A DNA stretch of 64,000 bases from Bacteroidota bacterium (GTDB taxonomy: Bacteria; Bacteroidota; Bacteroidia; Cytophagales; Spirosomataceae): the NCBI GenBank assembly GCA_040387735.1, contig JAZKDE010000056.1, forward strand, positions 4,395-68,394. Direction: 5' to 3'. The notes under the pieces were generated by a model. It did not search any database. It was not told where the DNA came from and saw nothing but the letters and a program-made list of their open reading frames with translations. Position numbers and translations under genes: made by a program. The first letter of the stretch is position 1. Each line of letters opens with the position of its first letter. Shown here in pieces: positions 8,384-58,488 of the stretch.

Positions 8384-8474
8384 GCAATAAGCGGTAAGCA
8401 ATAGTCAAAAGTAAGGTTATTGACTAATGAAGTCATTCCGTTTCTTTTTAGCATATAGCGTACGGCATACAGCA
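8384..8474. repeat. Heptamer-phased spacer between hisA and hisF
   Basis: Hand parse in one phase: GCAATAA GCGGTAA GCAATAG TCAAAAG ... TTTAGCA TATAGCG TACGGCA TACAGCA. GCnnTAn-type units recur at 7-nt spacing. Confidence 0.5.
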
Positions 8475-9197
8475 TTACTTGTTAAATTCCGCCAATTGTT
8501 TTAGGGTAACTCTTCCTTCATAAATGGCTTTTCCGACTATTACACCAAAAATATTCATGTCGTTCAGCTTCACAATATCATCAAAAGTTGCTACTCCTCC
8601 CGACGCAATGATATGTAAATCAGGAAATTGGTCTTGCAAATTTTGGTATAAATCAAAACTTGGCCCTTGTAATAATCCGTCTTTGGCAACATCCGTTGAA
8701 ATAGCGTATTTCGCTCCCTTCTCAAGGTATTCACCCACAAAATCATAAACCGATTTGGTGGTGGCTTCTTCCCAACCCGAAATGGCAATTTTTTCATTCC
8801 GAGCATCCGCTCCCAAAATGATTTTATCGCCTCCGTAACTTTGTAGCCACCCTTCAAATAAGGTTGGATTTTTTACGGCAACGCTTCCACCTGTTACTTG
8901 TTTCGCTCCCGAACTAAAGGCTATTTCAATCATTTCATCCGACTGTACACCACCACCAAAATCAATGTGAAGATTGGTTTTGGTAGCAATTCTTTCGAGC
9001 ACTTTATGATTAACGATTTTCTTTTGCTTAGCCCCATCCAAATCCACCAAATGCAGGCGAGTAATTCCTGCATCTTCAAAAGATTTAGCAACTTCTAATG
9101 GGTCTTCGTTATAAATGGTTTTCTGTGAATAATCTCCTTGTGTAAGACGCACACACTTGCCGTCTATCAGGTCAATGGCTGGAATAATTTGTATCAT
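8475..9197 (-). CDS. hisA: ProFAR isomerase (1-(5-phosphoribosyl)-5-[(5-phosphoribosylamino)methylideneamino]imidazole-4-carboxamide isomerase)
   Basis: MIQIIPAIDLIDGKCVRL.QGDY, LHLVDLDGA and GGG(V)...: canonical HisA. Confidence 0.95.
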   Translation of the reverse strand: MIQIIPAIDLIDGKCVRLTQGDYSQKTIYNEDPLEVAKSFEDAGITRLHLVDLDGAKQKKIVNHKVLERIATKTNLHIDFGGGVQSDEMIEIAFSSGAKQVTGGSVAVKNPTLFEGWLQSYGGDKIILGADARNEKIAISGWEEATTKSVYDFVGEYLEKGAKYAISTDVAKDGLLQGPSFDLYQNLQDQFPDLHIIASGGVATFDDIVKLNDMNIFGVIVGKAIYEGRVTLKQLAEFNK

Positions 9198-9210
9198 GTT
9201 TTTTTATTTT

Positions 9211-9303
9211 TTAGGGATTAGAAGTTAGTAACTGGGGTAATTCTAAAATTAAGTAGATATGTAACGATTTTATAACCCCTAAAATCTAACTTTTAATCCC
9301 TAA
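9211..9303. repeat. Heptamer-phased inverted array / long hairpin between fur-family stop and hisA start
   Basis: TTAGGGA TTAGAAG TTAGTAA CTGGGGT ... AACCCCT AAAATCT AACTTTT AATCCCT. The outer 18-bp stem pairs 9211-9228 with 9286-9303 (one G-U). Confidence 0.75.
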
Positions 9304-9722
9304 ATAGCACAAGTTTTACAAACTCCTTGTACTAAAAGATTAGTTTCTACTCGCTGGTAGCCTTCTGGAAGAATAATACTTGGAATAATCACGTGGTCTA
9401 AACAAGTGGTCAGACCACAAGTTGTACATTTAAAATGTACATGGTCATGGTGATGCTGATGGTCACCTGAGTGACAATTATCTTTGCAAATGGCATATTT
9501 TACGCCACCCTCATCATCTAAAACTTTATGAATTAACCCTTTATCAACAAACGTTTTGAGCGTTCTGTAAACGGTTACTCGGTCGAATTGTTCGGTCAAT
9601 TGGGATTCTACATCCGCATGAGCAAGAGCATGAGATTTACTCATGAAAACCTCCAAGATTTCCTCTCTACAATCTGTTTGACGGAGTTTGTAGTCTTTGA
9701 GTATAGTTTTTACTTCGCTCAT
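9300..9722 (-). CDS. Fur family transcriptional regulator (Fur/Zur-type)
   Basis: 140 aa. Winged-helix N-terminus (R.T..R..IL), then a His-rich patch HSGDHQHHHDHVHFKC and paired CxxC motifs (CTTCG ... CKTC). Confidence 0.85.
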   Translation of the reverse strand: MSEVKTILKDYKLRQTDCREEILEVFMSKSHALAHADVESQLTEQFDRVTVYRTLKTFVDKGLIHKVLDDEGGVKYAICKDNCHSGDHQHHHDHVHFKCTTCGLTTCLDHVIIPSIILPEGYQRVETNLLVQGVCKTCAI

Positions 9723-9729
9723 ATTCTGT

Positions 9730-9792
9730 GGCTTTCGGTTTTTGGCTATCGGCGTTCGGCTTTCTCTTCAAAACGAAAAGCCGAACGCTGAA
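9730..9792. repeat. Heptamer-phased spacer upstream of fur-family gene
   Basis: GGCTTTC GGTTTTT GGCTATC GGCGTTC GGCTTTC TCTTCAA AACGAAA AGCCGAA CGCTGAA. Contains the 12-bp stem at 9752-9788. Confidence 0.7.
9752..9788 (-). terminator. Strong hairpin after the 9799-10239 membrane gene (no U-tract)
   Basis: A 12-bp stem gcgttcggcttt/aaagccgaacgc. Lacks a T-run on either strand, so terminator function is uncertain. Confidence 0.4.
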
Positions 9793-9798
9793 TGCTAT

Positions 9799-10239
9799 TT
9801 AAAATAATTTATCCCAAGGAATACGACTTAATAACAATACAAGTCCTAAACCGAAGAAAATCAACGCATTTTTGTGTCTTACAGCTGAGTCAACAGCTCT
9901 TTTATTTTTTGAATAGCCAATTGTAATCAAAATAATAGCGATAATATTAGTCGAAATATGTTCTACCGCAATCTTACGATATTCCGCAATTTTCATTACT
10001 TCCGAACCAAGTTCAGTGAAAGCTTTTAATCCAAAAGGACTCAAAAATAAATATAAAACCAAGCCAATCAATAATTGCGTATGGTTTGAAATCAAGAAGA
10101 AAAGACCCAATTTTCGGTCAGTTTCTGTAAATGTTGACTTAGAACTAATACCCATTGCGGCTCTCACCAAAACAGCCAGACCCAATGCCATTACAACAAA
10201 GAAAAGTGCCTTGTGAATAAGTTGAAAAATTTCGTACAT
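9799..10239 (-). CDS. Hypothetical integral membrane protein (4 TM)
   Basis: 146 aa with four hydrophobic segments. No family recognised. Confidence 0.5.
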   Translation of the reverse strand: MYEIFQLIHKALFFVVMALGLAVLVRAAMGISSKSTFTETDRKLGLFFLISNHTQLLIGLVLYLFLSPFGLKAFTELGSEVMKIAEYRKIAVEHISTNIIAIILITIGYSKNKRAVDSAVRHKNALIFFGLGLVLLLSRIPWDKLF

Positions 10240-10338
10240 AATTTTGAGGATTTTGATTTGTCAATTTTTTTCAAAGATACTAAACAATGACTTCGTTTAT
10301 AATGTAATATTACAAAAACATCAAATCACAACAAACAC

Positions 10339-11997
10339 ATGAAAAAACGATTACTAATACCCACGCTCTGTTTGGCAAGTATGGCTTTGGGTTCATTTAT
10401 CACAAAAACCATTGAGAATCAATCGCTTTCGGTTGAAATAGTAAAACAAGCCGAAAAAATTATGGGCTTGGAATTCTCTCCTTCCGAAGCCGATTCCATG
10501 TTAGTAGAACTAACTGATACTCGCAAAAATTTTGAGGATATTCGTAAAGTAGAACTCAAAAATGAAGTTTCCCCCGCTTTATTATTTAATCCACTTCCTT
10601 CAGGCTTCAACTTTGAAAAAGGCACTTCTTCATTCAAACCTTCTGATGCAAAGACGGTTACTCTTCCGAAAGACAAAAACGAATTAGCTTTTTACAGTGT
10701 TCGTCAATTGGCAGAATTGATTCGTTCCAAGAAAATTTCTTCCGTAGAATTGACCAAGTTTTATTTAGAAAGGCTCAAAAAATACGATCCGCAATTACAG
10801 TGCGTCGTAACACTTACAGAGGATTTAGCCCTTCGTCAAGCGGCTCAGGCAGATGCCGAAATTGCCAAAGGAAAATATCGTGGCTTACTCCACGGAATTC
10901 CCTACGGAGCGAAAGATTTATTGGCAAAAAAAGGCTACAAAACGACTTGGGGGTCTGTACCATACAAAGATCAAGTACTTGATTATGATGCCATTGTGGT
11001 ACAAAGATTAGAAAAAGCGGGAGCCGTTTTATGTGCTAAATTAACCTTAGGAGAATTAGCTTGGGGTGATGTTTGGTTCGGAGGAATGACTAAAAACCCT
11101 TGGAATCTAAAGCGGGGTTCATCAGGTTCATCGGCGGGTTCGGCTTCATCTGTTTCGGCTGGTCTTTTACCTTTTGCCATTGGCTCAGAAACTTTGGGTT
11201 CTATCGTTTCGCCTTCGTCGGAATGTGGAGATACGGGCTTACGTCCTACTTTCGGACGAGTTCCCCGCACGGGAGCGATGGCATTGAGTTGGTCGATGGA
11301 TAAATTAGGCCCAATTTGTAGAACAGTGGAAGATTGTGCTATTGTCTTCAATAGTATTTACGGAAAAGATGGAAAAGATTTGACCGTAATGGATGCTCCG
11401 TTTCAATTTGACGGTACGAAAAAAGACTTAAAAGGCATCAAAATTGGTTATTTAAAAAATGATTTTGAAGGAAAATATCCAACAAAAACCCAAGACTCCT
11501 TAACCTTAGTAATGATGAAAAAATTAGGTGCAGAATTAATTCCAATGGAGTTACCAAATTTACCTTCCAATGACATTAGTTTTCTTTTAACCGTAGAAGG
11601 AGCGGCCGCTTTTGATGATTTAACTCGTTCTGGAAAAGATGATTTGATGGTTCGTCAAATCAAAAATGCGTGGCCAAATGCCTTTCGAGCGGCTCGTTTT
11701 GTGCCTGCGGTTGAGTACATCCAAGCAAATCGTCACCGTTCATTATTGATTCAAGATTTTCATAAAAAATTAGGAAAAATAGACGTGTATTTATCGCCAG
11801 CTTTTGCGAGTAAAAATTTAACGATGACCAATTTAACAGGACATCCATGCGTGGTTTTACCAAATGGATTTCGCAGTGAAGGTCGCCCGACGAGCATAAC
11901 ATTTATGGGGAAATTATTCGGGGAAGGGAAATTATTACAAGTTGCCAAAATCTACCAAGATGCAACCAATTTTCACTTGAAACATCCAAAGTTGTAA
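10339..11997 (+). CDS. Amidase signature family protein with N-terminal signal peptide
   Basis: 552 aa. Carries the amidase signature stretch GGSSGSSAGSASSVSAG and a GAKDL Lys region. The N-terminus MKKRLLIPTLCLASMALG looks exported. Confidence 0.8.
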   Translation: MKKRLLIPTLCLASMALGSFITKTIENQSLSVEIVKQAEKIMGLEFSPSEADSMLVELTDTRKNFEDIRKVELKNEVSPALLFNPLPSGFNFEKGTSSFKPSDAKTVTLPKDKNELAFYSVRQLAELIRSKKISSVELTKFYLERLKKYDPQLQCVVTLTEDLALRQAAQADAEIAKGKYRGLLHGIPYGAKDLLAKKGYKTTWGSVPYKDQVLDYDAIVVQRLEKAGAVLCAKLTLGELAWGDVWFGGMTKNPWNLKRGSSGSSAGSASSVSAGLLPFAIGSETLGSIVSPSSECGDTGLRPTFGRVPRTGAMALSWSMDKLGPICRTVEDCAIVFNSIYGKDGKDLTVMDAPFQFDGTKKDLKGIKIGYLKNDFEGKYPTKTQDSLTLVMMKKLGAELIPMELPNLPSNDISFLLTVEGAAAFDDLTRSGKDDLMVRQIKNAWPNAFRAARFVPAVEYIQANRHRSLLIQDFHKKLGKIDVYLSPAFASKNLTMTNLTGHPCVVLPNGFRSEGRPTSITFMGKLFGEGKLLQVAKIYQDATNFHLKHPKL

Positions 11998-12031
11998 CAT
12001 TTAATACTGCCTTAAAATGAACTAAATAGAC

Positions 12032-12094
12032 ATTTCTCTGTTTGATAAATGAATGTTTTAACCATTGACGTTTTATTTTATCAAACGGAGAAAT
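12032..12094 (+). terminator. Long stem-loop 35 nt after the amidase stop (no U-tract)
   Basis: An 18-bp stem pairs 12032-12049 with 12077-12094 (one G-U), with a 27-nt loop. Confidence 0.35.
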
Positions 12095-12252
12095 ATTAAA
12101 CTGGAAATAAATTCAATTTTTCAAGCAATAATCCGTTGTTTTTCTTGAACAAGATAATATTGACTTGATTGTATAACGAATTTTAAAATAACTAATACTC
12201 GTTGCGTAACTTTACAGAATAAAAACCATCGAGGAGAATATAAATTATCACA

Positions 12253-12813
12253 ATGCAATTTTCAAAAACAATCATTTTGCTTTCTATTTTGCTGACTTTC
12301 AATAGTTTTGCACAAAAAAATAAAAAAACACCTCCCGCCCCGATTGAGCAATTCCCTATTCCTCAAACCACGCCGAATCAGTTGTTTTATATTCAACGTA
12401 GCTCTAATATTAATACCATTATTTATGATGCTAATTTGGGTGCCGACAAAAAATTAGACCCCAAAAGTCCCGTTCATACTTATTGGATTCGTTATACAGA
12501 CGGCAGTAAAAAACAAGAGCTTACCAGCATACAACGTTCATTGGCGTATGGGCTCCACACTAAGCCAATCAATGGAGAATTAGGCAGTTACGATGGTTAT
12601 TTCTTTGCCTATCGTAAACGAAAATTTGTCGTAAAACTCAATCCAAAAGGAGAACCAATTGCGTTATTTCCGATAAATGGTAAAATGCAAATTCTGAAAA
12701 AAGTGTTTGTCAATGTGGACGAAAGCGGCATGATGCCATCGGTAATTCACGTCGAACTTTGGGGCCGAGACGTTGTAACTGACAAAGAAGTTTACGAGAA
12801 ATTTAAGCCATAA
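12253..12813 (+). CDS. Secreted hypothetical protein (DUF4833-like)
   Basis: 186 aa with a signal peptide. The LFYIQRSSNINTIIYDAN motif recalls DUF4833; this is from memory only. Confidence 0.4.
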   Translation: MQFSKTIILLSILLTFNSFAQKNKKTPPAPIEQFPIPQTTPNQLFYIQRSSNINTIIYDANLGADKKLDPKSPVHTYWIRYTDGSKKQELTSIQRSLAYGLHTKPINGELGSYDGYFFAYRKRKFVVKLNPKGEPIALFPINGKMQILKKVFVNVDESGMMPSVIHVELWGRDVVTDKEVYEKFKP

Positions 12814-12879
12814 AAAGCACCTCCCATCCGTTCAATATCCCTTTGAACACATATTGACGTTTTTAAAAACTGTATAATT

Positions 12880-12887
12880 TATTTTTG
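12880..12887 (+). promoter_or_regulatory. Candidate Bacteroidota -7 promoter box (TAnnTTTG) upstream of sppA
   Basis: TATTTTTG at 12880-12887, 89 nt before the sppA ATG. Confidence 0.3.
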
Positions 12888-12975
12888 AGTTATAGACATA
12901 GCTTTGAGCTACGAACGCTTTTAAACTAATAGCTCAAAACGCTTAACTGACATAAAACCAAAACTTAAAAATAAT

Positions 12976-14748
12976 ATGTTACAGTTTCTTAAATACGTGC
13001 TTGCAACCATCGTGGGGTTGCTTTTATTTACCATCGTTAGTTTTTTAATGCTTGTTGGTATTGGAGCAGCGATGGGTTCAAGCGATGATGTTTCTCTGAA
13101 AGACAATTCCGTTCTAAAATTAGACCTCAATCGTCCTATTGTAGAAAACGTTGCCGAAGACGAAAATCCACTCAAAAATTTAGGAGGTCCATTTTCCGAC
13201 GGTGCTGACAATCTCGGTTTAGTTCAACTCCGTGATGGCTTGAAACGAGCTGCCGCTGATAGTCATATCAAAGGAATTTATTTGCAAGCCAATTTTCCAC
13301 AAGCAGGTTATTCAACTTTAGAAGAAATTCGAAATGCTCTCCTCGAATTCAAAAAATCAGGTAAATTCATCTATAGTTACGGAGAAATGTTCTCTGAAAA
13401 AGGCTATTATGTTACGTCAATTGCGGATAAAATTTATCTAAATCCTGCGGGAGGAATGGACTTTAATGGAATTAGTGCCGAAGTGAGTTTCTTCAAAGGA
13501 GCTTTGGATAAATTGGATATTAAGCCAATCGTTTTTAGAGTAGGTGAATATAAATCAGCCGTTGAGCCGTATCTCCGTGAAAATATGAGCGATGCCAACA
13601 AAGCTCAATACACTTCCCTATTAGGTTCATTGAATGACCATATTTTTGCACAAATTGCAAAATCAAGAAACATACAAATTACCGATTTAAAGAAGGTTGC
13701 CGACGAATTAACTGCTTATAAACCGCAAGGAGCTTTAAATTCGAAATTGATAACCAACATTGGATATTACGATGAGTTTGAATCTGCTTTGAAAAAAACC
13801 TTGAAAAGAGATAATGATGATAAAATAGAATTTATCGGTTTATCTAAATTTATCAAGGCAAAATCTGCCATTTCTTATAACGATTCTAACAACAAAATTG
13901 CGGTTATTGTGGGCGAAGGGGCCATCGTTGGAGCAAAAGCAGACAAAGGAAATATTGGTTCGGAAGACTGGGTAGCGGAACTTCGCAAAGCTCGTGATGA
14001 TAAAAAAGTAAAAGCCATTGTATTGAGAATTGATAGCCCAGGAGGTTCAGCCTTAGCATCAGATGTGATGTGGCGTGAAGTTGAATTAGCCAAAAAAGTA
14101 AAGCCTGTCATTGCTTCAATGGGTGACTATGCGGCTTCTGGCGGTTATTATATGGCAATGGCAGCGGATACAATCGTGGCTCAACCAACTACAATTACTG
14201 GTTCAATCGGGATTTTTGCCCAATTTTTCAACTTTGAGAATTTCTTAAAAAATAAACTCGGTATCACCAACGACCGTGTAAATACCAACGCTCACTCAGA
14301 CTTCCCTACGGTTACTCGTGAAATGGATGAATTTGAAAAAGCGTGGTTTCAGAAAAGCATTGAGGCTGGTTATGAGTCCTTTACCAGCAAAGCTGCCAAA
14401 GGACGCAAAATGAGCATAGATAAATTAAAATCTCTTGCAGGCGGACGTGTATGGTCAGGAATTGAAGCAAAACAAAATGGTTTAGTTGATGTTTTAGGAG
14501 GTTTAGAAGATGCCGTAAAGATTGCCGCTAAAAAAGCAAAATTGAAAGATGGCGATTTCAAAACCAAATTTTATCCACAACCTAAAGGTTTTTTTGAAGA
14601 GCTTTTTGATAAAAAGGAAGAAGAAGTACAAGCCAGTATGATGAAAGCTCAGTTCGGTGATTTAGCACCTTATGTAAAACAATTAAAAGACTTGAAATCT
14701 CGTGAAGGCGTAATGATGTTAATGCCAGAAGTAATTGATTTTAAGTAA
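12976..14748 (+). CDS. sppA: Signal peptide peptidase SppA, 67K type
   Basis: 590 aa with an N-terminal TM and two ClpP/crotonase-like S49 halves (GGSALASD, ASGGYYMA). Confidence 0.88.
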   Translation: MLQFLKYVLATIVGLLLFTIVSFLMLVGIGAAMGSSDDVSLKDNSVLKLDLNRPIVENVAEDENPLKNLGGPFSDGADNLGLVQLRDGLKRAAADSHIKGIYLQANFPQAGYSTLEEIRNALLEFKKSGKFIYSYGEMFSEKGYYVTSIADKIYLNPAGGMDFNGISAEVSFFKGALDKLDIKPIVFRVGEYKSAVEPYLRENMSDANKAQYTSLLGSLNDHIFAQIAKSRNIQITDLKKVADELTAYKPQGALNSKLITNIGYYDEFESALKKTLKRDNDDKIEFIGLSKFIKAKSAISYNDSNNKIAVIVGEGAIVGAKADKGNIGSEDWVAELRKARDDKKVKAIVLRIDSPGGSALASDVMWREVELAKKVKPVIASMGDYAASGGYYMAMAADTIVAQPTTITGSIGIFAQFFNFENFLKNKLGITNDRVNTNAHSDFPTVTREMDEFEKAWFQKSIEAGYESFTSKAAKGRKMSIDKLKSLAGGRVWSGIEAKQNGLVDVLGGLEDAVKIAAKKAKLKDGDFKTKFYPQPKGFFEELFDKKEEEVQASMMKAQFGDLAPYVKQLKDLKSREGVMMLMPEVIDFK

Positions 14749-14755
14749 GAATTTT

Positions 14756-14802
14756 GATATTCGATTCTTGATGTTTAAAAAAATATCAAGAATCGAATAT
14801 TT
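14756..14802. repeat. Heptamer-phased perfect hairpin after sppA
   Basis: GATATTC GATTCTT GATGTTT AAAAAAA TATCAAG AATCGAA TAT. The 16-bp perfect stem pairs 14757-14772 with 14785-14800. Confidence 0.7.
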
Positions 14803-14823
14803 AACTACAACCAAAATACAATT

Positions 14824-28219: not shown

Positions 28220-28220
28220 T

Positions 28221-28284
28221 TTTTCGGTGTTTGTCATTCGATGTCCGACTTCCAAACATCGAATAACGAAAATCAAACATCCAA
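28221..28284. repeat. Heptamer-phased spacer between convergent permease and response-regulator genes
   Basis: TTCGGTG TTTGTCA TTCGATG TCCGACT TCCAAAC ATCGAAT AACGAAA ATCAAAC ATCCAAA. All five CG dinucleotides are spaced by multiples of 7. Confidence 0.6.
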
Positions 28285-31823: not shown

Positions 31824-32399
31824 ATGGACAAAGTTCAACTTCGTAAATATTACCTTTCTAAACGCAAAGCAATTTCCTCCGAAGAAATTGCCGAAAAAAG
31901 TCAGCAAATTGCTGATTTATTTTTTCAATCTTTCGACCTTTCAAATATTCAAAAGCTCCATATTTTCTTACCAATCATCCGAAATAAAGAGATAAATACA
32001 TTCCTGATAATCAAACACTTAAATAAGCATTTTCCGCAAATAAATATCATCATTCCAAAGACGATTATTAGTACCTCCGAAATGGAACATTATCTTTTAG
32101 ATGAAGAAAAATTAACCGAAAATCAATGGGGAATTTTAGAACCTTCGGATGAAAATCTGGTAAAATTTGAACCTTCAACCATTGATTTAGTCATTATTCC
32201 CTTATTAGTTTTTGACAAGCACGGCAATCGAGTTGGCTACGGCAAAGGGTTTTACGACCGTTTTCTGCAAAAATGTAAAACAACGACCCTAAAAATTGGA
32301 CTTTGTCTTGAAGAGCCAATCGAACAAATTGAAGATGTAAATGAATTTGATATAAAGATGGATTTTTGTATTACTTCTACAAAAAATTACATTTTTTAA
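31824..32399 (+). CDS. 5-formyltetrahydrofolate cyclo-ligase
   Basis: 191 aa. Has LR ... and a C-terminal G.R.GYGKGFYDR motif. Confidence 0.88.
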   Translation: MDKVQLRKYYLSKRKAISSEEIAEKSQQIADLFFQSFDLSNIQKLHIFLPIIRNKEINTFLIIKHLNKHFPQINIIIPKTIISTSEMEHYLLDEEKLTENQWGILEPSDENLVKFEPSTIDLVIIPLLVFDKHGNRVGYGKGFYDRFLQKCKTTTLKIGLCLEEPIEQIEDVNEFDIKMDFCITSTKNYIF

Positions 32400-32497
32400 A
32401 TTTTCATAAACCATTGAAAATCAGAATTTTAATATATTATTCTCGATTCTCTGTTTTCTATTATCTAATTTCCCTTTTCTCTTCAAACTTTATAGAG

Positions 32498-34950: not shown

Positions 34951-34999
34951 TTAATTGTGATTAAGTGAGTTGTGATTAATAACTCACTTAATCACTAAT
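34951..34999. repeat. Heptamer-phased hairpin between convergent genes (SUOX-like and rnr)
   Basis: TTAATTG TGATTAA GTGAGTT GTGATTA ATAACTC ACTTAAT CACTAAT. The 13-bp perfect stem pairs 34959-34971 with 34981-34993. Confidence 0.75.
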
Positions 35000-42617: not shown

Positions 42618-42657
42618 AAAAGAGGTCAGCATTCAATATGCTGACCTCTTTTTGTTT
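42618..42657 (+). terminator. Intrinsic terminator after the TauE-like gene
   Basis: Stem aaaagaggtcagcat/atgctgacctctttt followed by a T-run. Confidence 0.85.
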
Positions 42658-42802
42658 TTAGCACAAGCTAATAATCGGACTGATTTAGCATATACTATTA
42701 GAAATTTTAAGTTTATTTTAATTAAATTTTAATAAGTTTTTAAGTATTAATACTTTTGTTTTGATGATGTCGTTTTTGATAAACAACAAAACCTTTACAA
42801 AA

Positions 42803-45280: not shown

Positions 45281-45369
45281 CCGAGAGCCACAGAGTTTAA
45301 GACGAGAACCACAGAGTATTTCCAAGTATTTTCTGTGGTTCTCGTCTTAAATTCTGTGGCTCTCTGCGG
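45281..45369. repeat. CCACAGAG-type nested palindrome, copy A (no associated gene)
   Basis: A 34-bp stem pairs 45283-45316 with 45331-45364 (two G-U, no mismatch), with a 14-nt loop. Contains GAGAGCCACAGAG, TTTAAG and GAGAACCACAGAG, with the CCACAGA words 21 nt apart. Confidence 0.9.
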
Positions 45370-48232: not shown

Positions 48233-48384
48233 TTTAGAGGGAAAGAGGTTACACAGAGAGCCACAGAGTTTTAAAATGAGAACCACAGAGAAAAAATCTC
48301 TACGTCTTTCTCATTTTCTCTAAAAATCTCTGTGGTTCTCAATTTTTTCTCTGTGGCTCTCTGTGTAACCTCATACCCTCTAAA
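48233..48384. repeat. CCACAGAG-type nested palindrome, copy B, directly upstream of the GxxExxY pseudogene
   Basis: Three stacked stems: 48233-48241/48376-48384, 48245-48268/48349-48372 (24 bp perfect) and 48278-48290/48328-48340 (13 bp perfect). Shares AGAGCCACAGAG ... GAGAACCACAGAG with copy A. Confidence 0.9.
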
Positions 48385-48410
48385 CAGGCTCAGATAAACA
48401 TAACAACAAA

Positions 48411-48782
48411 ATGGAAATAAACGAAATTACCAGAATAATCATTGGGTGTGGTATTGAAGTTCATAAACAGCTTGGTCCAGGTTTACTTGAATCAGCTTAT
48501 GAAGAATGTTTAGCTTTTGAATTGAAACAAAAAGGCTTACAAGTTTAAAGACAAAAAGCATTACCCATTCAATACAAAGACATCCAATTAGAATATGGTT
48601 ATCGAATAGATTTATTAGTTGAAAATACAGTGGTTATCGAATTGAAGAGTGTTGATATTTTACATCCATTACACGAAGCACAGATATTAATTTACATGAA
48701 ATTTGCTGAAAAGAAAATTGGGCTTTTAATGAATTTTAATGTACTTGCTTTGAAAGATGGCGTGAAGAGATTTATGAAATAA
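48411..48782 (+). pseudogene. GxxExxY protein (PD-(D/E)xK nuclease-like) gene with an in-frame TAA at codon 46
   Basis: Not in ORF track. My translation is [122 protein letters not shown]. The GLLESAY signature and D..(E.K) core are present. The stop at 48546-48548 falls where family members usually have Glu (GAA). Confidence 0.8.
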
Positions 48783-48831
48783 AAATTATATGGAATCTGA
48801 TTTCCATAAGAAAATAAAGCAAAATAAAATA

Positions 48832-49428: not shown

Positions 49429-49431
49429 GAA

Positions 49432-49577
49432 GTTGCGAATTGTAAGTTGTGAGTTGTGAGTTAACGAGCAGTAAATTGTATTTGTGAATTATTAATTATG
49501 AGAAAACTCATGAAAACTCACAATTCACTACTCACAGTTCACAATTCACAACTCATCATTCGCTCATTCACAATTGA
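49432..49577. repeat. leuD-leuA spacer made of about 21 phased heptamers in inverted arrays
   Basis: Left half: GTTGCGA ATTGTAA GTTGTGA GTTGTGA GTTAACG AGCAGTA AATTGTA TTTGTGA ATTATTA ATTATGA. Right half: AACTCAC AATTCAC TACTCAC AGTTCAC AATTCAC AACTCAT CATTCGC TCATTCA CAATTGA. Confidence 0.85.
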
Positions 49578-49579
49578 AT

Positions 49580-52320: not shown

Positions 52321-52337
52321 TTATTAGATTTTAGTCA

Positions 52338-52381
52338 AACAAAAAGCTGACGAAGTAATACACTTTGTCAGCTTTTTGTTT
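52338..52381. terminator. Bidirectional terminator between leuB and the LD-carboxypeptidase gene
   Basis: An 18-bp stem aaacaaaaagctgacgaag/ctttgtcagctttttgttt (one G-U). A and T runs are built into the stem ends. Confidence 0.85.
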
Positions 52382-52402
52382 TCATTTTATTCCAAGAAAT
52401 TA

Positions 52403-53350
52403 TTACATAGTCAAAGCATCTTCCGTTAAGAAAACGCCATTTTGGGCTACTTTCAAGGTTAGTATTCTTCCACAAGGCATTGCCCAATTATCAGCTTCGT
52501 GTCCAACAGGAAAATCATAACAAACAGGAAAATCATAATCCGCAACGGCTTCTTGAATTATCTCATTGGCAGTTTTACCAAAAGGGACATTATTGTCCTG
52601 ACAATCCGAAAAACTCCCCACAATCAATCCTGCCAGATTTTGCAATTTCCCGCTACGTTTTAATTGTATCATCATACGATCAATGCTGTACAAATACTCA
52701 TTTACGTCTTCCAAAAACAAAATCTTTTCATCATAATTAATATCTGACTTTGAACCAGTTAGATGAGAAAGCATAGCTAAATTACCCCCAATTAATTGCC
52801 CTCTCGCTAAACCAAAACGATTCATCTCATTCGGAAGAATTTCATATAAAAGAGGCTCACCAAATAGTAATTTCCTAAGACTTTCTAATGAGTACTCACC
52901 GCCTTCTTGCAAAAATAGTTTGGGCATAGTAGCGTGTAAACTTTCAATATTCAAGGTATGAATATGACAATGAACAGCAGTAATATCTGAAAAACCAACA
53001 ACCCATTTAGGTGATTTCTGAAAGGTTCCAAAGTTAAGATTATCCAATAATCGAGAACTCCCATAACCCCCTCTGGCTGAAAAAATCGCCTTAATTTCTG
53101 GATTATCCAACATCAATTGAAAGTCATTTCTACGTATTTGGTCAGTCCCCGCAAACTGGTGGTATTCACTCCTGAGGGATTCGCCTAAAATAACGGTTAA
53201 ACCCCAAACATTTTCCATCAATTCAATGGCTGGCTTGAGAACTTCAAAATCGACTTTGCAGGCTAATGCCAATAAGCCTACAGTATCACCTTTTTGTAAA
53301 GAATTTGGTCGCAAAATTTCCGAATTATTGGTTAAATGGGTAGTCGTCAC
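52403..53350 (-). CDS. LD-carboxypeptidase (S66 family, LdcA/MccF-like)
   Basis: 315 aa from a GTG start, with the GYSD-type nucleophile region (GFSDITA) and a C-terminal H/E region (PVGH). Confidence 0.8.
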   Translation of the reverse strand: MTTTHLTNNSEILRPNSLQKGDTVGLLALACKVDFEVLKPAIELMENVWGLTVILGESLRSEYHQFAGTDQIRRNDFQLMLDNPEIKAIFSARGGYGSSRLLDNLNFGTFQKSPKWVVGFSDITAVHCHIHTLNIESLHATMPKLFLQEGGEYSLESLRKLLFGEPLLYEILPNEMNRFGLARGQLIGGNLAMLSHLTGSKSDINYDEKILFLEDVNEYLYSIDRMMIQLKRSGKLQNLAGLIVGSFSDCQDNNVPFGKTANEIIQEAVADYDFPVCYDFPVGHEADNWAMPCGRILTLKVAQNGVFLTEDALTM

Positions 53351-53465
53351 ACACTAAACGACATTTTATTATGTTATGTAAATATATAATCAGCTTGTTA
53401 AAAACCTAATAATTAATTGAGCTGAGTTAGTAAAATTACGTACTCATTTCGGATTCGTTTTTAAA

Positions 53466-54503
53466 TTATCCAATAAAATAATCACTCTGTTTACCTTCTT
53501 CAGCTTCTTTAACGGGCGGAGTATATTCGCTCGTAAGGATAACGTCTTGAATGTCAGAAATTTTTGTTAAATCCAAACTAACAATCCCCGCCCCTACTTT
53601 GTCGCTGAACATAGGTAAAAATTTTGCTCCAAAAACCATCTCTCGGGAATGAAAAGAAGTCCGAGAATGAACAGTTTGATTAAAAGTATCTTCTGTAGCC
53701 CTTATCAAAACCAAAAACTCAGCATCGGCTTTTATTAACTCTTCTTTGCCTAATCCAAACATTGGGCTATCCTGAGTAATTGCGTGAACTATTGTCCAAT
53801 TTGTCGGGAAAAAATTCACTTTATCTCGTTCCAAATTTAGACCAAAGTATCGTCTCAATACTTTGCCATCAACCTGTTTTTCCAGTATTGACATTGCTAC
53901 TTCCACTTGGAGGTCAATTAACTGATTCGCTCGTTCATTAACAACCCGAAACATAAAACCCGTTACGTCCAAATAAGGAGCAATAATGGCTTTATCGGAA
54001 TACAAAATGTGAGCGACTGGCTTAGAAAAACGCCCATAGAGCAAACTGGTAGCCAAAGCAAAAATCAAAAGGCCAAGCAATGACTCTACTGCTGCGACTG
54101 AACTCGCCCAAAAACCAATCGGGGCAATCCGTCCATAACCAACCGTCGTGAGAGTTTGAGATGAGAAAAAGAAGGCATCCATCAACCGACTTTTCACCGA
54201 TGTCATGTCTGCTCCCTGCAAATTTTCAATGCCCACAAGTTCGTAAATACCCGCAAAAATTAAATTTAAGGTCAGGTAAAATGACACAATAAGTTCGAAA
54301 AAACGCCCCCAAGTGCATACCATTAGGCGGTTGAAAATATTGACTCTACTCCAAAAAGAACCTCCTTCTCGCTTCACATTAAAGCTTCCATCACGGTTTA
54401 GCAGCCGAGTATCAGGGTCATTTATTTGAGTACCAAAGCCTAAATCTCGGCGTTTTTCTTCGGCTTCAACAAGTTTATCTTTTTTGGGGTGAAGTAAATT
54501 CAT
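53466..54503 (-). CDS. Inward-rectifier-type potassium channel (KirBac-like)
   Basis: Two TM flank a pore helix with the selectivity filter TTVGYG, followed by a cytoplasmic beta-rich domain of about 170 aa as in the Kir/KirBac architecture. Confidence 0.8.
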   Translation of the reverse strand: MNLLHPKKDKLVEAEEKRRDLGFGTQINDPDTRLLNRDGSFNVKREGGSFWSRVNIFNRLMVCTWGRFFELIVSFYLTLNLIFAGIYELVGIENLQGADMTSVKSRLMDAFFFSSQTLTTVGYGRIAPIGFWASSVAAVESLLGLLIFALATSLLYGRFSKPVAHILYSDKAIIAPYLDVTGFMFRVVNERANQLIDLQVEVAMSILEKQVDGKVLRRYFGLNLERDKVNFFPTNWTIVHAITQDSPMFGLGKEELIKADAEFLVLIRATEDTFNQTVHSRTSFHSREMVFGAKFLPMFSDKVGAGIVSLDLTKISDIQDVILTSEYTPPVKEAEEGKQSDYFIG

Positions 54504-54702
54504 AATTGAGCAGTTTTAATAAATGACTAACTCCGTTTATGAATTTTTCGTTTCAATAGTTTTTCAAATTGACCCTTCACGGATAAAATGGATTTGCTCC
54601 GAAAATCTTTATTTTGAGGCAAGACAGCCTTCAAATGTACTAATCTCCGATTCTATTTTCAGAAAATATTGGTAATCAGACAAAAACAATCATAAAATGA
54701 AT

Positions 54703-54710
54703 TATTTTTG
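54703..54710 (+). promoter_or_regulatory. Candidate -7 box upstream of the thioredoxin-fold gene
   Basis: TATTTTTG at 54703-54710, 69 nt before the ATG. Confidence 0.3.
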
Positions 54711-54778
54711 TTTCACAATACGTTACTATCACTGAATATCATCGTCTCGAAAAATCAGTACTTAATCATTGACCCAAC

Positions 54779-55324
54779 ATGAAAAATCTTTTATTTACGC
54801 TAATATTTTCTTCCCTATTATTTACAGGCAAAGCTCAAGCAGTTAATGAACACGCTGGACAAAAAATCCAATGGATGACACTGGAACAAGCTTTTGCAGC
54901 TACCCAGAAAGAACCACGCAAAATCATGGTCGATGTTTATACAGGCTGGTGCGGCTGGTGTAAAGTGATGGACCAAAGAACTTTTCCTAATGATAAAGTA
55001 GCGAGTTTTGTAAGCGAGAAATTTTATGCGGTAAAATTGGATGCAGAACAAAAAGATACAATCACCATTGGTACTCAAAAATATATTTGGCAAAATGGCT
55101 ATAATCAAGCGGGTGTAGCTCTTTTGCAGGGAAAAATGTCTTTCCCAACAATTGTTTATTTAGACGAAAAATTTAATATGATTCAGTCTGTTCCTGGCTT
55201 TCAGGAAGCACCGCAATTTCACCAAGTAATAACTTTCTTTGGGGACAATCATTACAAAAAAGGCAACTGGGATCAATATCAAAGAGACGTTTATCCGAAA
55301 CAATACGGTGAAGGAAAAAAATAA
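54779..55324 (+). CDS. Exported thioredoxin-fold protein (DUF255/DsbD-gamma-like)
   Basis: Signal peptide and a WCGWCK redox motif. Confidence 0.75.
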   Translation: MKNLLFTLIFSSLLFTGKAQAVNEHAGQKIQWMTLEQAFAATQKEPRKIMVDVYTGWCGWCKVMDQRTFPNDKVASFVSEKFYAVKLDAEQKDTITIGTQKYIWQNGYNQAGVALLQGKMSFPTIVYLDEKFNMIQSVPGFQEAPQFHQVITFFGDNHYKKGNWDQYQRDVYPKQYGEGKK

Positions 55325-55343
55325 AGGACAGGTATTTATAACC

Positions 55344-55381
55344 AAAAAGTGGGCAAGATTTTCATCTTACCCACTTTTTTT
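55344..55381. terminator. Bidirectional terminator between the thioredoxin-fold gene and the 55401-56159 gene
   Basis: Stem aaaaagtgggcaaga/tcttacccacttttt (one mismatch) with flanking A and T runs. Confidence 0.8.
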
Positions 55382-55400
55382 ACGATATATTTGAAAGTTC

Positions 55401-56159
55401 TTAAAACTGCATTCCGTCTAAATCATTCACCGAAACAATATATTTAGACTCATTATTTCCCATTCGTACTTTCAAATGGTAATTACCGCCCGCCAAATAG
55501 TACAAAGGTTTCAAAACACCCGTTTGAGTTGCTTCACTGTATTTATAATCACAAGGAATTCCCATCCCTGTTTCCGTCGTTAAAATCGGAATTAATCTAC
55601 TATCGCCCGTTTTGATATGAATTACGTTATTTTCGTCTGTTTGTAAACATCTTACAATTTCACTCGGTGCTGGAACGGCATCGAGCATGATTCTCACGGG
55701 AGCATAAACAACGGTTTTATCTTCCTCGTCAACTTCCATAATGCGGTAATATTTCGTACCAATATTCATTTTTGGGTCAATAAAAGTATATAGCGACCTT
55801 TCTTCTTGACTCGGTTCAACTTTTATTTCTCTTAAATCATAAAAATTCTCTTTGTCGTGACTAATCTGAATAACATACATTTTAGCTTGGTGTCCCACTG
55901 CACTAACCCATGACAACTTTGCTTTGTAATTTTCATCAAGAATTACTTTCAACGAAATTTTTGAATTACTCATCGATCTGATGGGTTCAAACATTTTTTT
56001 GTTAATAGCAGAGATTTTTAATTGATTTTCATCAAACAAATTGACCGTAAAGTATTTGTATTCTTTATTGGCTAATAACTTGAAGGGCTTTGCGGGAATG
56101 GCAAAAGAAGCGTTAATGATAAAAATCATCAACATTGCATAAAGGAACGTTTTTTTCAT
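55401..56159 (-). CDS. Secreted hypothetical protein
   Basis: 252 aa with a signal peptide and beta-rich composition. The C-terminal approx. 70 aa (GNYHLKVRMGNNESKYIVSV) vaguely resemble a T9SS sorting domain. Not verified. Confidence 0.4.
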   Translation of the reverse strand: MKKTFLYAMLMIFIINASFAIPAKPFKLLANKEYKYFTVNLFDENQLKISAINKKMFEPIRSMSNSKISLKVILDENYKAKLSWVSAVGHQAKMYVIQISHDKENFYDLREIKVEPSQEERSLYTFIDPKMNIGTKYYRIMEVDEEDKTVVYAPVRIMLDAVPAPSEIVRCLQTDENNVIHIKTGDSRLIPILTTETGMGIPCDYKYSEATQTGVLKPLYYLAGGNYHLKVRMGNNESKYIVSVNDLDGMQF

Positions 56160-56214
56160 GGGTTATTTATACTCGTTAGTGTACCCAGATATTCCGCAAA
56201 ACTTATACCAATAA

Positions 56215-56790
56215 TTACAGAATCTTCAAAATATTTCCAATATTTGCACGCTGTTGGTAATTTTCATCAAAATGTACAAATTCTATCTTTCCATCTTGCC
56301 CAATTACATAAGTTGCAGGTACAGGAAGTATCCAATCTCCTTGCTTCTTTTCTAAATCCAATCCATAACCTTTATATTTGGTTTGCATATCGTCCGACAT
56401 TGAATAAGCCACTTTCCAATCTTTCATAATCTTACGGTCTTTGTCGTAAATTATTGAAAATGTTGATTTTGTCTTCTCAACGGCTTTGCTGATAGATTCC
56501 TCAGGTTCAGGAGTTATGGCAATAACCTTTGCATTTTTTGTACTAAATTCTGGTAAAGCTTGCTCTAATTGGCTCATATATTTATTGCAATAAGGACACC
56601 AAGCTCCTCGATAAAACATCAAAACGACCTTTCCCTTTTCTGTTAATTCTTTGAGACTAATCATTTTTCCGTTATGGTCTTTTCCTACAAAATTAGGAGC
56701 GTTATCACCTACTTTTAAGGCAATGGGTTTATCCTGAGCAAAGGTTGAGAAAAAACTCATTATTAGGATAATTGTAATCAATTTGTTCAT
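56215..56790 (-). CDS. Exported redoxin / AhpC-TSA family thiol-disulfide oxidoreductase
   Basis: Signal peptide after the ATG at 56790 and a WCPYC active site. Confidence 0.8.
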   Translation of the reverse strand: MNKLITIILIMSFFSTFAQDKPIALKVGDNAPNFVGKDHNGKMISLKELTEKGKVVLMFYRGAWCPYCNKYMSQLEQALPEFSTKNAKVIAITPEPEESISKAVEKTKSTFSIIYDKDRKIMKDWKVAYSMSDDMQTKYKGYGLDLEKKQGDWILPVPATYVIGQDGKIEFVHFDENYQQRANIGNILKIL

Positions 56791-56983
56791 AAATAAATGA
56801 AATTTAAGTTTAATAATTGTAAAAATAGGAGATTTGGTCTTCTCAAAATGTAAGTCAGCCGACATTCAAAAAAATTGTTTTCACAATCCATTTTAAAGCC
56901 TTATTTTTACACCGAAAAACAGTCTAATTATTTGATTTTGTGAATATTTCAAGAAGTTTTTGAAGAATATTTGCTCATTCAGA

Positions 56984-57095
56984 GGTATTAGGAATTTGGT
57001 ATTTGGTTTTAGTATTTTAACGGATTACTTATTTTGGATAATCTTGAAAAACTAATCCCTAAAACCCAATCCCTAAAACCTATTACCTAAAACAT
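56984..57095. repeat. Heptamer-phased spacer upstream of glyA, including three tandem 13-14-nt AATCCCTAAAACC units
   Basis: One phase throughout: GGTATTA GGAATTT GGTATTT GGTTTTA GTATTTT ... AATCCCT AAAACCC AATCCCT AAAACCT ATTACCT AAAACAT. Confidence 0.8.
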
Positions 57096-57114
57096 TCACT
57101 CATTGAATTTACCA

Positions 57115-58407
57115 ATGGCAACAGCAACTTTCACGCTCGAAAGAGATACCGAAATTTTTAATTTGATTAATCAAGAAGCTCACCGTCAAGAGTACGGAAT
57201 CGAATTGATTGCTTCTGAGAATTTTACTTCAAAACAAGTCATGGAAGCCCAAGGCTCAGTTTTGACCAATAAATATGCAGAAGGACTTCCAGGAAAACGT
57301 TATTACGGTGGTTGTGAAGTTGTTGACCAAGTAGAAACTATTGCTATTGAGCGTGCAAAAGCACTTTTCGGAGCAACTTGGGCAAACGTTCAGCCTCACT
57401 CGGGAGCTCAAGCAAACGCTGCGGTTTTCTTATCATTCTTAAATCCAGGCGATAAAATTTTAGGTTTCAACCTTTCTCACGGTGGTCACCTTTCTCATGG
57501 TTCTCCAGTAAACTTCTCAGGAAAATACTTCCAAGCATTTTTCTACGGTGTTGAAGAAGAAACAGGTTTAATTGACTGGGATAAAGTAGAAGCTACCGCT
57601 TTGAAAGAAAAACCAAGATTGATTATTTGTGGTGCTTCTGCATATTCACGTGATTGGGACTATGTTCGTTTACGTGCCATTGCTGACGAAATCGGTGCAA
57701 TTCTATTAGCCGATATTTCTCACCCATCGGCATTAATTGCGAAAGGTTTATTGAATAACCCAATGCAACATTGCCATATCGTAACTACAACAACCCACAA
57801 AACGTTGAGAGGGCCACGTGGTGGTTTAATTATGATGGGCAATGACTTTGTGAATCCATTTGGTCAAAAAACATTAAAAGGTGAATTGAAAATGATGTCA
57901 GCGTTGTTAGACGGTGGCGTTTTCCCGGGAACGCAAGGTGGACCATTGGAACACGTTATTGCGGCAAAAGCAATTGCTTTCGGTGAAGCTTTAACGGATA
58001 ATTTCCAAGATTATGCTGAACAATTACAACGCAATGCAAAAGTAATGGCTCAGGGTTTTGTGGATAAAGGATATAAAATCATCTCTGGTGGAACAGATAA
58101 TCACCTGATGTTAATTGACTTACGTCCAAAAGGATTAACAGGTAAATTAGCGGAAAACACCTTGGTAAAAGCTGACATTACTATCAACAAAAACATGGTT
58201 CCGTTTGATGATAAATCTCCATTTGTAACCTCTGGTATTCGTGTAGGAACGGCAGCCATGACAACTCGTGGTATGAAAGAAGCAGAAATGTTGCACATTG
58301 TAGAGTTAATTGACAGCGTTTTGATGAATCACGACAATGAAACATTCATTGGTTCGGTGAAAACAGAAGTAAACAAATGGATGGAAGCATTTCCGTTGTA
58401 TGTATAG
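57115..58407 (+). CDS. glyA: Serine hydroxymethyltransferase
   Basis: [20 protein letters not shown]-like ([12 protein letters not shown]) and [14 protein letters not shown] containing the PLP Lys. Confidence 0.97.
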
Positions 58408-58418
58408 ATTTTTTACGA

Positions 58419-58488
58419 AGTATTAAGTCCTAAGATTGGTGAAATTTAAGCCTTAATTCTTAATACATAATACGTTATATTTAATACA
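58419..58488. repeat. Heptamer-phased imperfect palindrome between glyA stop and its terminator
   Basis: AGTATTA AGTCCTA AGATTGG TGAAATT TAAGCCT TAATTCT TAATACA TAATACG TTATATT TAATACA. Confidence 0.6.

Follow-up and report, generated by a model that had tools for sequence, protein, structure and literature searches.

We found that intergenic DNA in a 64,000-nt stretch of a Bacteroidota bacterium (assembly GCA_040387735.1, contig JAZKDE010000056.1, positions 4,395 to 68,394 of the forward strand; the whole stretch is called the window, or W, below) carries tandem arrays of degenerate 7-nt units (heptamers), commonly faced by a reverse-complement array in the same spacer. The heptamer periodicity is real, and such arrays are a lineage-wide property of Bacteroidota intergenic DNA, occurring in Cytophagales, Chitinophagales and Saprospiraceae; the repeat class is real, widespread and little described. 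As to their origin, we think it somewhat probable that the arrays are DNA palindromes built by slippage and templated from arm to arm, which are filtered by constraints at the mRNA level and tolerated in operons as looped-out insertions.

Heptamer arrays of the window

Gene calls were mechanical (longest ATG-started open reading frames, ORFs, of at least 70 aa) and left 56 crudely called intergenic regions amounting to 8.6 kb, or 13% of the sequence. The fraction of self-matches at lag 7 in these regions was 0.325 against 0.293 expected from 200 dinucleotide shuffles (z=+6.95). Lag 8 reached z=+4.6 and lag 14 z=+2.4, with |z|<2 at the remaining lags between 2 and 15. A detector requiring at least 15 of 21 lag matches, which is stringent and misses degenerate arms, returned ten lag-7 segments in the window, seven of them intergenic, and zero to two intergenic segments at any other lag. 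The tandem-repeat finder TRF also reports period-7 arrays in the window. An excess over shuffled sequence, on which the initial annotation had made its own observation depend, was present in the window.

That annotation had parsed ten spacers into heptamers by eye. With 2000 shuffles per locus and correction for trying lags 3-12, six of them were individually significant at p<0.0005 (8384-8474, 9730-9792, 28221-28284, 49432-49577, 56984-57095 and 58419-58488). Two were marginal (9211-9303 and 14756-14802; p ~0.02 uncorrected and ~0.14 corrected), with lag 7 still the best lag. The remaining two, 34951-34999 and 45281-45369, failed the periodicity test and are not heptameric; one array, at 32438, had been overlooked. 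The loci and the terminator adjoining one of them are as follows.

8384..8474, minus strand: hisA|hisF intercistronic spacer, His_biosynth on both flanks; lag-7 match fraction 0.48, z=4.5.
9211..9303, minus strand: spacer between a Fur-family gene and hisA, with a strong hairpin (TTAGGGATTAG.../...CTAATCCCTAA); fold z -5.0, periodicity p=0.02 uncorrected.
9730..9792, minus strand: spacer between a gene of unknown function (9799-10239) and the Fur-family gene (9300-9722); lag-7 0.57, z=5.7.
14756..14802, plus strand: perfect 21-bp AT-rich hairpin in a co-directional spacer, GATnnTn x3; fold z -8.8, periodicity p=0.02 uncorrected.
28221..28284, no strand assigned: stop-to-stop spacer between convergent permease and LytTR regulator genes, nnnTCGA-type units with a moderate hairpin; lag-7 0.56, z=5.3.
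32438..32469, plus strand: direct heptamer array TATTCTC x4, G-poor, downstream of a gene ending at 32399; lag-7 0.61, p=0.0005.
49432..49577, plus strand: leuD|leuA intercistronic spacer (spacer 49429-49579), the strongest array; lag-7 0.54, z=7.1.
56984..57095, plus strand: inverted array upstream of glyA (serine hydroxymethyltransferase, SHMT) in a divergent intergenic region; lag-7 0.54, lag-14 0.58.
58419..58488, plus strand: array in the glyA 3' untranslated region (UTR), TAATACA x ~5 with a weak AGTATTA partner; lag-7 0.57, fold not significant.
58495..58533, plus strand: canonical intrinsic terminator of glyA, stem CCCTGACAA/TTGTCGGGG and then a T-run, outside the array.

Several of these spacers fall within biosynthetic operons (hisA|hisF, leuD|leuA). 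The leuD|leuA array begins 3 nt past the leuD stop codon with GTTGTGA-type units (5' arm, ~49430-49467), continues into a 3' arm of (A/C)TCACA(A/G)-type units (~49515-49562) and stops ~15 nt short of the leuA ATG, with a predicted fold of -45.5 kcal/mol. It is identical in the comparative loci L001 and L165 (L-numbers denote comparative loci throughout) and co-varies with L003 and L004. Read in the sense of transcription, the hisA|hisF spacer has the 5' arm TGCTGTA TGCCGTA CGCTATA TGCTAAA (8447-8474) and the 3' arm CTATTGC TTACCGC TTATTGC (8384-8404); its helix follows the pattern (((.((.(((.((. with two or three base pairs and then one mismatch, the mismatches standing in heptamer phase. The 9730 spacer carries five GGCTTTC-type units on the plus strand (in sense GAAAGCC, the 3' arm) with a shorter 5' arm as partner, and its stem of 14 bp folds at -25.5 kcal/mol (z -5.4). 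The same unit family is found in the leuD-leuA spacers of Dyadobacter/Persicitalea and of L168. Upstream of glyA, the 5' arm is GGTATTn x5 (~56979-57018) and the 3' arm is made of 14-nt double units AATCCCT/AAAACCY (~57038-57097). This array ends ~18 nt before the glyA ATG (57115), folds weakly with mismatches in phase, and is identical in the sister locus L165. Downstream of glyA, the 58419 array follows the stop codon (58407) and precedes the true terminator, as had been described at the outset.

Units are specific to their locus, in agreement with the initial annotation. Its reading of each spacer in one single phase has no meaning across a hairpin loop, and each arm is phased separately. 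Folds were strong (z -5 to -11.6) at 9211, 9730, 14756, 34951, 45281 and 49432, weak at 8384 (z -1.8), 28221 (z -2.8) and 56984 (z -2.9), and absent at 58419 (z -0.75).

The G+C content of the window is 35-39%, and its sequence places it as an Arcicella-like member of Cytophagales. LeuB showed 92-95% identity to Cytophagales and Arcicella metagenome-assembled genomes (MAGs) and also to Pseudarcicella hirudinis, while LeuD showed 99% identity to Arcicella sp. LKC2W and 100% to a MAG named 'Bacteroidota bacterium'. An Rfam 15 search of the whole window at gathering scores gave 0 matches, the scan of the window for tRNA and tmRNA found none, and promoter and terminator scans of the window returned nothing relevant. 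The per-spacer catalogue of the window covers it up to ~37.7 kb.

Occurrence in Bacteroidota and anatomy of the arrays

Two sets of comparative loci were used, all anchored on leuB or hisF, so that estimates for other spacers apply to the neighbourhoods of these genes. The leuB set comprised 80 loci of GTDB species representatives (Spirosomataceae and other Cytophagales, Chitinophagaceae, Saprospiraceae and one Flavobacterium MAG) with 128 kb of intergenic DNA and 1.02 Mb of coding sequence (CDS). The independent hisF set comprised 80 metagenome loci of unknown taxonomy. Intergenic DNA of the leuB set contained 103 lag-7 and 48 lag-8 segments, with harmonics at 14, 16 and 21, and 3-12 segments at each of the other lags. 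Its CDS contained 20 lag-7 segments, that is 0.2 per 10 kb against 8.0 per 10 kb in intergenic DNA, a rate 40x lower. The hisF set gave 50 lag-7 and 15 lag-8 segments and 1-11 at other non-harmonic lags, and in both sets lag-7 arrays exceeded non-harmonic lags about tenfold. No array was found in 21.8 kb of intergenic DNA from three 50-kb regions of E. coli K-12, including its leu and his operons. The arrays share two traits of heptanucleotide long simple sequence repeats, namely head-to-tail repetition of a unit of 5-11 nt beyond what chance allows and, for unit lengths other than multiples of 3, restriction to non-coding DNA.

A chance or low-complexity artefact of AT-rich intergenic DNA would agree with two of the proposed loci being marginal and two failing the test. 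It is refuted by the z of +6.95 against dinucleotide shuffles and by the tenfold lag-7 specificity in both 80-locus sets, and identical array sequences were recovered in independent assemblies; we give this explanation a negligible probability.

The arrays are unevenly placed. Among spacers of 50-160 nt in the leuB set, a 7- or 8-mer array was present in 62/127 (49%) within the leuCDAB operon, in 21/182 (11.5%) of other co-directional spacers, in 3/63 (~5%) of convergent and in 2/37 (~5%) of divergent spacers. In the hisF set, arrays occurred in 23/116 (20%) of spacers in the hisF directon versus 3/38 (8%), 5/34 and 0/29 elsewhere. The initial annotation had treated all spacer types alike; the arrays in fact concentrate in intra-operon spacers, with further cases in 3' UTRs, convergent spacers and one divergent 5' region. 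A general preference for co-directional spacers was considered and rejected, being mostly an effect of the leu operon, where a fourfold excess persists after length matching.

The leuD-leuA spacer is bimodal in length. It is at most 30 nt long and free of arrays in 23/64 genomes, and 60-160 nt long in 28; of these 28, 14 carry heptamer arrays, five carry octamer arrays, and the rest are mostly plain long hairpins. The element is therefore dispensable and appears to have grown out of a short ancestral spacer.

The same architecture built from octamers was seen at L009 7920-8014, L018 7526-7607, L019 7430-7532, L020 4301-4375 and L059 4489-4622, an example in Spirosoma leuD-leuA spacers being GAAAGAGT.../CACTCTTT... 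Such 8-mer arrays behave like the 7-mer arrays. An extreme heptamer example lies downstream of leuA in a Bacteroidetes MAG (L056 9103-9540), with ~30 TACAGGT units, a 90-nt loop region and ~18 AACCTGA units; its arms pair 6/7, leaving one phase-locked A·A mismatch per unit.

A Watson-Crick partner of at least 15/21 within the same spacer was found for 91/204 arrays (~45%), compared with ~2% per shuffle; the arrays thus include convergent heptamer pairs within one intergenic region. About half of the arrays have no clear partner, and the statement that most loci switch to the reverse-complement unit and form a long hairpin applies to the other half. In co-directional spacers, arrays in the 5' half begin a median of 1 nt past the stop codon, and those in the 3' half stop short of the called ATG by a median of 5 nt. 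Orientation is strongly biased: G exceeds C in 62/83 of 5'-half arrays and C exceeds G in 84/96 of 3'-half arrays (Fisher p=9e-18); array-free spacers are likewise poorer in G than in C in their 3' half (G 0.136 versus C 0.190). This bias implies that the transcript matters. ATG triplets are depleted in 3' arrays, a figure confounded by the first-ATG gene calls.

In the 50 hairpins formed by an array and its partner, the median values are 32 pairs, 37% G-C pairs and -41 kcal/mol, and the outermost base pair is separated from the stop codon by 2 nt and from the start codon by 11.5 nt. Only 3/50 carry a U-tail (at least 5 T in the 8 nt after the stem), so the array hairpins are not intrinsic terminators, which accords with the earlier view that simple terminators do not explain their placement.

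The units are AT-rich and very diverse, with ~130 heptamer arrays having almost as many canonical units. Clustering them, as had been proposed, revealed few recurrent themes across loci and genera (GGCTnTC/GAnAGCC, GTGAG/CTCAC and AGGTATA/CAAATCT), and a shared unit consensus was rejected. This diversity argues against a sequence-specific binding factor. Two further candidates were also rejected. The idea of 'GC staples', G/C unit positions kept for stem stability, was contradicted by conservation of 0.784 in G/C columns versus 0.811 in A/T columns. A frame-independent stop barrier, in which a stop-bearing heptamer closes three frames in 21 nt, would favour the sense strand, and 65 sense versus 61 antisense arrays of 179 qualified.

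We also weighed whether the arrays are a platform for a protein with a footprint of ~7 nt per module, such as a cold-shock-domain or S1/OB-fold protein, and consider this very improbable. In one form of the proposal, the G-poor 3' array would be a landing pad for the ribosome or S1 upstream of starts lacking a Shine-Dalgarno (SD) sequence, as proposed for TAACTGA repeats. It would suit the 3' arrays, which are G-poor, A/C/U-rich and close to the ATG, and the existence of lone 3' arrays (TTCAAAT x4, CTAACAC x7, TAACAGT x5). Bacillus subtilis CspB, moreover, binds one heptamer per protein (MacGregor 2015, PMC4679880). However, the units have no shared consensus, and lone arrays in the 5' half, where they are G-rich, are nearly as common as those in the 3' half (45 vs 57). 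The 8-mer arrays behave alike, and a partner arm, where present, would sequester the site.

Turnover between genomes and the proposed making of the palindromes

Through comparison of leuD-leuA spacers, we found that the phased architecture is kept in related genomes and the sequence is not, so that the absence of conservation which would have spoken against the arrays was not observed. At 98.5% leuD nucleotide identity (L178), the array differs by one A>G change, which improves pairing. At 95-96.5% leuD identity, the spacer is of a different type: 77 nt with GTGATGA-type units in L166, L175-177 and L179, or 150 nt with GCTATCG.../GCCGACA units in L168-174, compared with 151 nt and GTTGTGA units in the window. 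The spacers of L166 and L167 likewise share their length, both being 77 nt, which may be a length constraint or a coincidence. In L167 the 3' arm is homogenised to CATCATT x3-4 with L166 having the same length, which indicates unit duplication and loss without net change in length. The spacers of W, L003 and L004 (84-87% leuD nucleotide identity) align end to end and share remnants (GAGCAGTAA), and 15/43 consensus pairs changed on both sides. Between L166 (5718-5890) and L167 (5054-5226), the spacer separating amine-oxidase and esterase genes has its hairpin loop inverted (TTTAGTTAAACCC vs GGGTTTAACTAAA) above a perfect heptamer-phased stem (GCAGAAT GCAGAAC AAGGAAT TAAGAAT GTAGAAG). This inversion is a signature of template switching or recombination between inverted repeats.

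Such turnover could also be read as insertion of mobile palindromes, REPIN-like or of the kind of miniature inverted-repeat transposable elements (MITE-like), moved by a RAYT/Y1 transposase and not built in place. Between genomes whose flanks are 96.5% identical the whole leuD-leuA spacer has been exchanged, the GGCTnTC/GAnAGCC and GTGAG/CTCAC families recur at unrelated loci in unrelated genera, a Y1_Tnp gene stands beside leuC in L166, and the hairpins at 45281 and 48245 in the window are truly two copies of one dispersed element. Against this, apart from that CCACAGAG element no heptamer array sequence recurs in the window, and most units are unique to their locus. The remnants shared by W, L003 and L004, with graded end-to-end change, indicate evolution in place, and L166 and L167 differ by homogenisation of units, not by replacement. 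Insertion of mobile elements is thus an improbable source of the heptamer arrays.

A stem selected as RNA tolerates G·U and avoids A·C on the transcribed strand. When the 50 sense-oriented hairpins were folded with G·U forbidden, their 115 1x1 mismatches included 25 G·U and 32 A·C, and a sense-strand wobble preference was absent. Allowing G·U gave the antisense strand a folding advantage of 1.8 kcal/mol over the sense strand (p=0.004). From both results, complementarity appears to be maintained strand-symmetrically, as would be expected from template switching between quasipalindrome arms. The RNA-level roles suggested in the initial annotation (stabilisation, insulation, protein binding) gain no support from the wobble test.

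These data bear on the possibility that the hairpins are selected RNA elements of polycistronic mRNAs, acting in translational coupling or as barriers to exonucleases or modulators of termination in the manner of repetitive extragenic palindromic (REP) sequences. In the coupling version, a terminating ribosome would melt the base of the stem and unmask an SD-less start, the heptamer register being the cheapest mutational way to lengthen the stem. The excess in leu and his operons at matched spacer length speaks for such an element, as do the stem base abutting stop and start codons, the tie of arm orientation to transcription (p=9e-18), the compensatory changes between species, the similar lengths of spacers with unrelated units and the lack of drift in unit number between sister strains. 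Bacteroidota, moreover, reportedly initiate translation without SD sequences and rely on start regions that are A-rich and free of structure (Baez 2019; Jha 2021), and E. coli REPs at most 15 nt from a stop codon are reported to affect translation of the upstream gene (Liang, Rudd and Deutscher 2015). However, the G·U to A·C counts exclude the ratio of 2:1 or more that a selected RNA stem should give (p ~3e-4, binomial estimate), and sense RNA folds worse than antisense. Moreover, 23/64 genomes manage with a short leuD-leuA spacer and no hairpin, arrays also lie in 3' UTRs, in convergent spacers and in a divergent 5' region, and about half of them lack a clear partner. We therefore regard selected RNA elements as possible and doubtful. 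Slightly less likely is the broader proposal that self-renewing intercistronic hairpins throughout the phylum, made of 7-nt slippage units whose complementarity is upheld by templating between arms, couple each stop to the next start, by coupling or reinitiation across a looped-out spacer, and set the expression ratios of leu and his genes.

The origin by slippage and arm-to-arm templating would proceed as follows. A short ancestral spacer (~5-27 nt) would gain a duplicated heptamer, and replication slippage would expand and homogenise the units within one arm. Fold-back or quasipalindrome template switching would then copy changes from arm to arm, so that arm complementarity persists in the DNA even as the units themselves drift and are replaced. 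The product would be a locally generated array of 7-nt (less often 8-nt) units which, with its usual reverse-complement array, turns the whole spacer into a single long AT-rich palindrome with imperfect arms. From the orientation bias, selection at the transcript level may keep variants with the G-poor (A/C/U-rich) arm beside the downstream start codon, which would force the G-rich arm to the 5' side. A G-poor filter would suit the SD-less initiation reported for Bacteroidota. The hairpin, having no U-tail, would loop out the inserted sequence, so that the unpaired distance from stop to start stays at ~14 nt, similar to array-free spacers; this constant distance is probably the reason that expansions are tolerated inside operons. 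We infer the mechanism of slippage plus template switching, and the near-neutral status of a tolerated looped-out insertion, from these patterns together. The initial annotation had offered a by-product of slippage or templated repair among several roles, and this is the idea which fits the data best.

Several observations weigh against this account. The sister locus L165 (98.6% nucleotide identity over 20.6 kb, 0.5% CDS divergence) shares four of the arrays, each differing by one substitution at most and unchanged in unit number; neither L165 nor L178 shows the variation in unit number between sister strains that had been looked for, so slippage must be slow or counter-selected. The leuD-leuA spacers of W (49429-49579) and L168 (599-748) have unrelated units and nearly the same length, 151 vs 150 nt, between flanks 96.5% identical, and the equal lengths of unrelated spacer types hint at a constraint on the whole element. 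Mutation alone does not account for the excess of arrays in leu-operon spacers, a trend which the his operon shares. Efficient arm-to-arm correction would have erased phase-locked mismatches such as those in L056 (one A·A per unit over ~18 units). The choice of a 7-nt register is left unexplained, the mismatch test rests on 57 informative events, and distances to start codons are approximate owing to the crude gene calls (first ATG, ORFs of at least 70 aa).

About half of the sampled 50-160 nt leu-operon spacers are periodic palindromes of locus-specific heptamers. If this holds across whole genomes, a large proportion of the spacers inside operons of major environmental Bacteroidota would be neither promoters, terminators nor known RNA motifs. 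The arrays offer a natural system for studying why bacterial slippage favours a 7-nt register and whether templated mutation or selection preserves the complementarity of inverted-repeat arms. They are also a candidate structural solution for the expression of internal cistrons in a phylum without SD pairing. In practice they will confuse predictors of terminators and non-coding RNA and can break short-read assemblies, and they serve as fast-evolving markers between close species.

Dispersed hairpins and known repeat systems

Three further hairpins of the window are not heptameric.

34951..34999, no strand assigned: perfect hairpin of 17 bp in the stop-to-stop gap where molybdopterin oxidoreductase and RNase R genes converge; fold z -8.1, periodicity p=0.17, best lag 4.
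45281..45369, minus strand: REPIN-like hairpin of ~90 nt, near-perfect, -61 kcal/mol; lag 7 below expectation.
48245..48372, plus strand: leuC|leuD spacer element, the second copy of the CCACAGAG hairpin, adjoining a PDDEXK_3 (PF13366) pseudogene (~48413-48783).

The 34951 hairpin is a plain hairpin. In the one at 45281, each arm contains two CCACAGAG sub-repeats 21 nt apart, forming a 21-nt internal repeat. The CCACAGAG octamer has six copies in the window versus 0.5 expected, spaced 21-22 nt in hairpins of ~90-130 nt. Among 2.2 Mb of comparative loci, this hairpin is confined to the W lineage (W, L001, L165, L175), and in L004, L166 and L167 the orthologous spacer lacks the 45281 hairpin. 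Outside the leu operon, L004 alone among GTDB representatives shares two flanking genes with the window. The 45281/48245 hairpins behave as a dispersed REPIN-type element and form a class apart from the heptamer arrays.

Small genes have been inserted into leu operon spacers of Arcicella-like genomes. One of them, a PF13366 (PDDEXK_3, GxxExxY-type) gene, separates leuC from leuD and is intact in relatives and a pseudogene with an internal stop in the window (window region 48245-48783; L165 9560-9931; L166 9558-9929; L167 9463-9849 and 12233-12628), and a second copy stands between leuA and leuB in L167 and L168. In L169-L171 the same leuC-leuD slot holds a PF05635 (23S_rRNA_IVP) gene instead (488-844, 197-553). 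The indels between W and L165 lie in the leuC-leuD region. Directly upstream of leuC in Arcicella sp. LKC2W, we found a 152-aa Y1_Tnp gene (PF01797, IS200/RAYT-like; L166 7220-7678), which could be relevant to the mobility of hairpin elements. Elsewhere in the window, a period-11 repeat (AAATTTTAAGT x4, 42702-42746), not heptameric, lies upstream of a DUF4349 gene, and near it W and L165 differ by single-base indels at 42633 and 42637.

The initial annotation knew of no such arrays in Bacteroidota; precedents exist in Xanthomonas (PMC4692102) and in some Bacteroidetes (PMC4679880). The closest architecture is that of the Xanthomonas GGGAATC repeats, intergenic tandem heptamers with 70-75 convergent array pairs per genome that are capable of forming stem-loops (Rehm et al. 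2015, PMC4692102). Their length and sequence vary between sister species with the type, single or inverted pair, preserved, and 7-nt polymerase slippage was invoked for them (PMC4692102). Xanthomonas, however, uses one G-rich, G-quadruplex-forming unit genome-wide. That unit does not occur as a common unit here, where units are AT-rich and locus-specific; the window arrays contain no G-tract units and have no G-quadruplex potential. The arrays described here, in another phylum, lie within operons, fill spacers from stop to start and keep a fixed G-rich-5'/G-poor-3' orientation.

According to the papers citing Mrazek 2007 (PMC4679880, PMC4692102), heptanucleotide repeats are the commonest long simple repeats in prokaryotes, with slippage as the rationale. 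The cyanobacterial short tandemly repeated repetitive (STRR) and heptanucleotide sequences (Mazel 1990, Mrazek 2007, as cited in the same two papers) are similar in being intergenic, tandem, over-represented 7-nt units for which an origin by slippage was proposed. As described there, STRR sequences are a few genome-wide families of direct repeats, whereas our units are locus-specific and commonly inverted, and no few unit sequences are common to many loci.

Forward-oriented TAACTGA repeats precede start codons by a few nucleotides in five Bacteroidetes (MacGregor 2015, PMC4679880). 'Other heptamer direct repeats' were noted in spacers of Gramella and Aequorivita, with relatives having shorter repeat-free spacers (PMC4679880). 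The position is shared by our 3' arrays (median 5 nt before ATG), and TAAC-containing units occur in L013, L016, L017 and L068; TAACTGA itself is absent from the window arrays. TAACTGA is a single conserved unit, nearly always direct (one indirect set), for which horizontal transfer was proposed (PMC4679880), in contrast to the many units, inverted pairs and evolution in place observed here.

REP sequences, bacterial interspersed mosaic elements (BIMEs) and REPIN elements are likewise imperfect intercistronic or 3' palindromes without a U-tract that can sit a few nucleotides from stop codons, and the CCACAGAG hairpin (45281, 48245) resembles a REPIN doublet. REPs, however, are dispersed copies of one conserved 20-40 nt sequence without 7-nt periodicity. 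The heptamer arrays are periodic, locus-specific and single-copy in the window, where only the CCACAGAG hairpin recurs (two elements). REP-type elements go with a RAYT (Y1 transposase) gene in the genome, and a Y1_Tnp gene was seen once, in L166. Rho-independent terminators have a GC-rich stem and a U-tract, while the median GC-pair fraction of the array hairpins is 0.37. The G·U tolerance and A·C avoidance of selected RNA stems were not found either.

Quasipalindrome template-switch mutagenesis perfects palindromes (Ripley; Lovett and colleagues; as noted in PMC4060949). It would keep arms complementary without selection and fits both the co-variation without wobble preference and the loop inversion. 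It differs in being known as a mechanism of point-mutation hotspots in E. coli, not as a builder of periodic arrays. In the full-text literature, subscription papers lying outside the search, we found no description of inverted heptamer arrays in Bacteroidota. Compared with all these systems, the new features are the locus-specific AT-rich units, the concentration from stop to start in Bacteroidota operons, the fixed orientation, the wobble-free co-variation and the companion class of 8-mer arrays.

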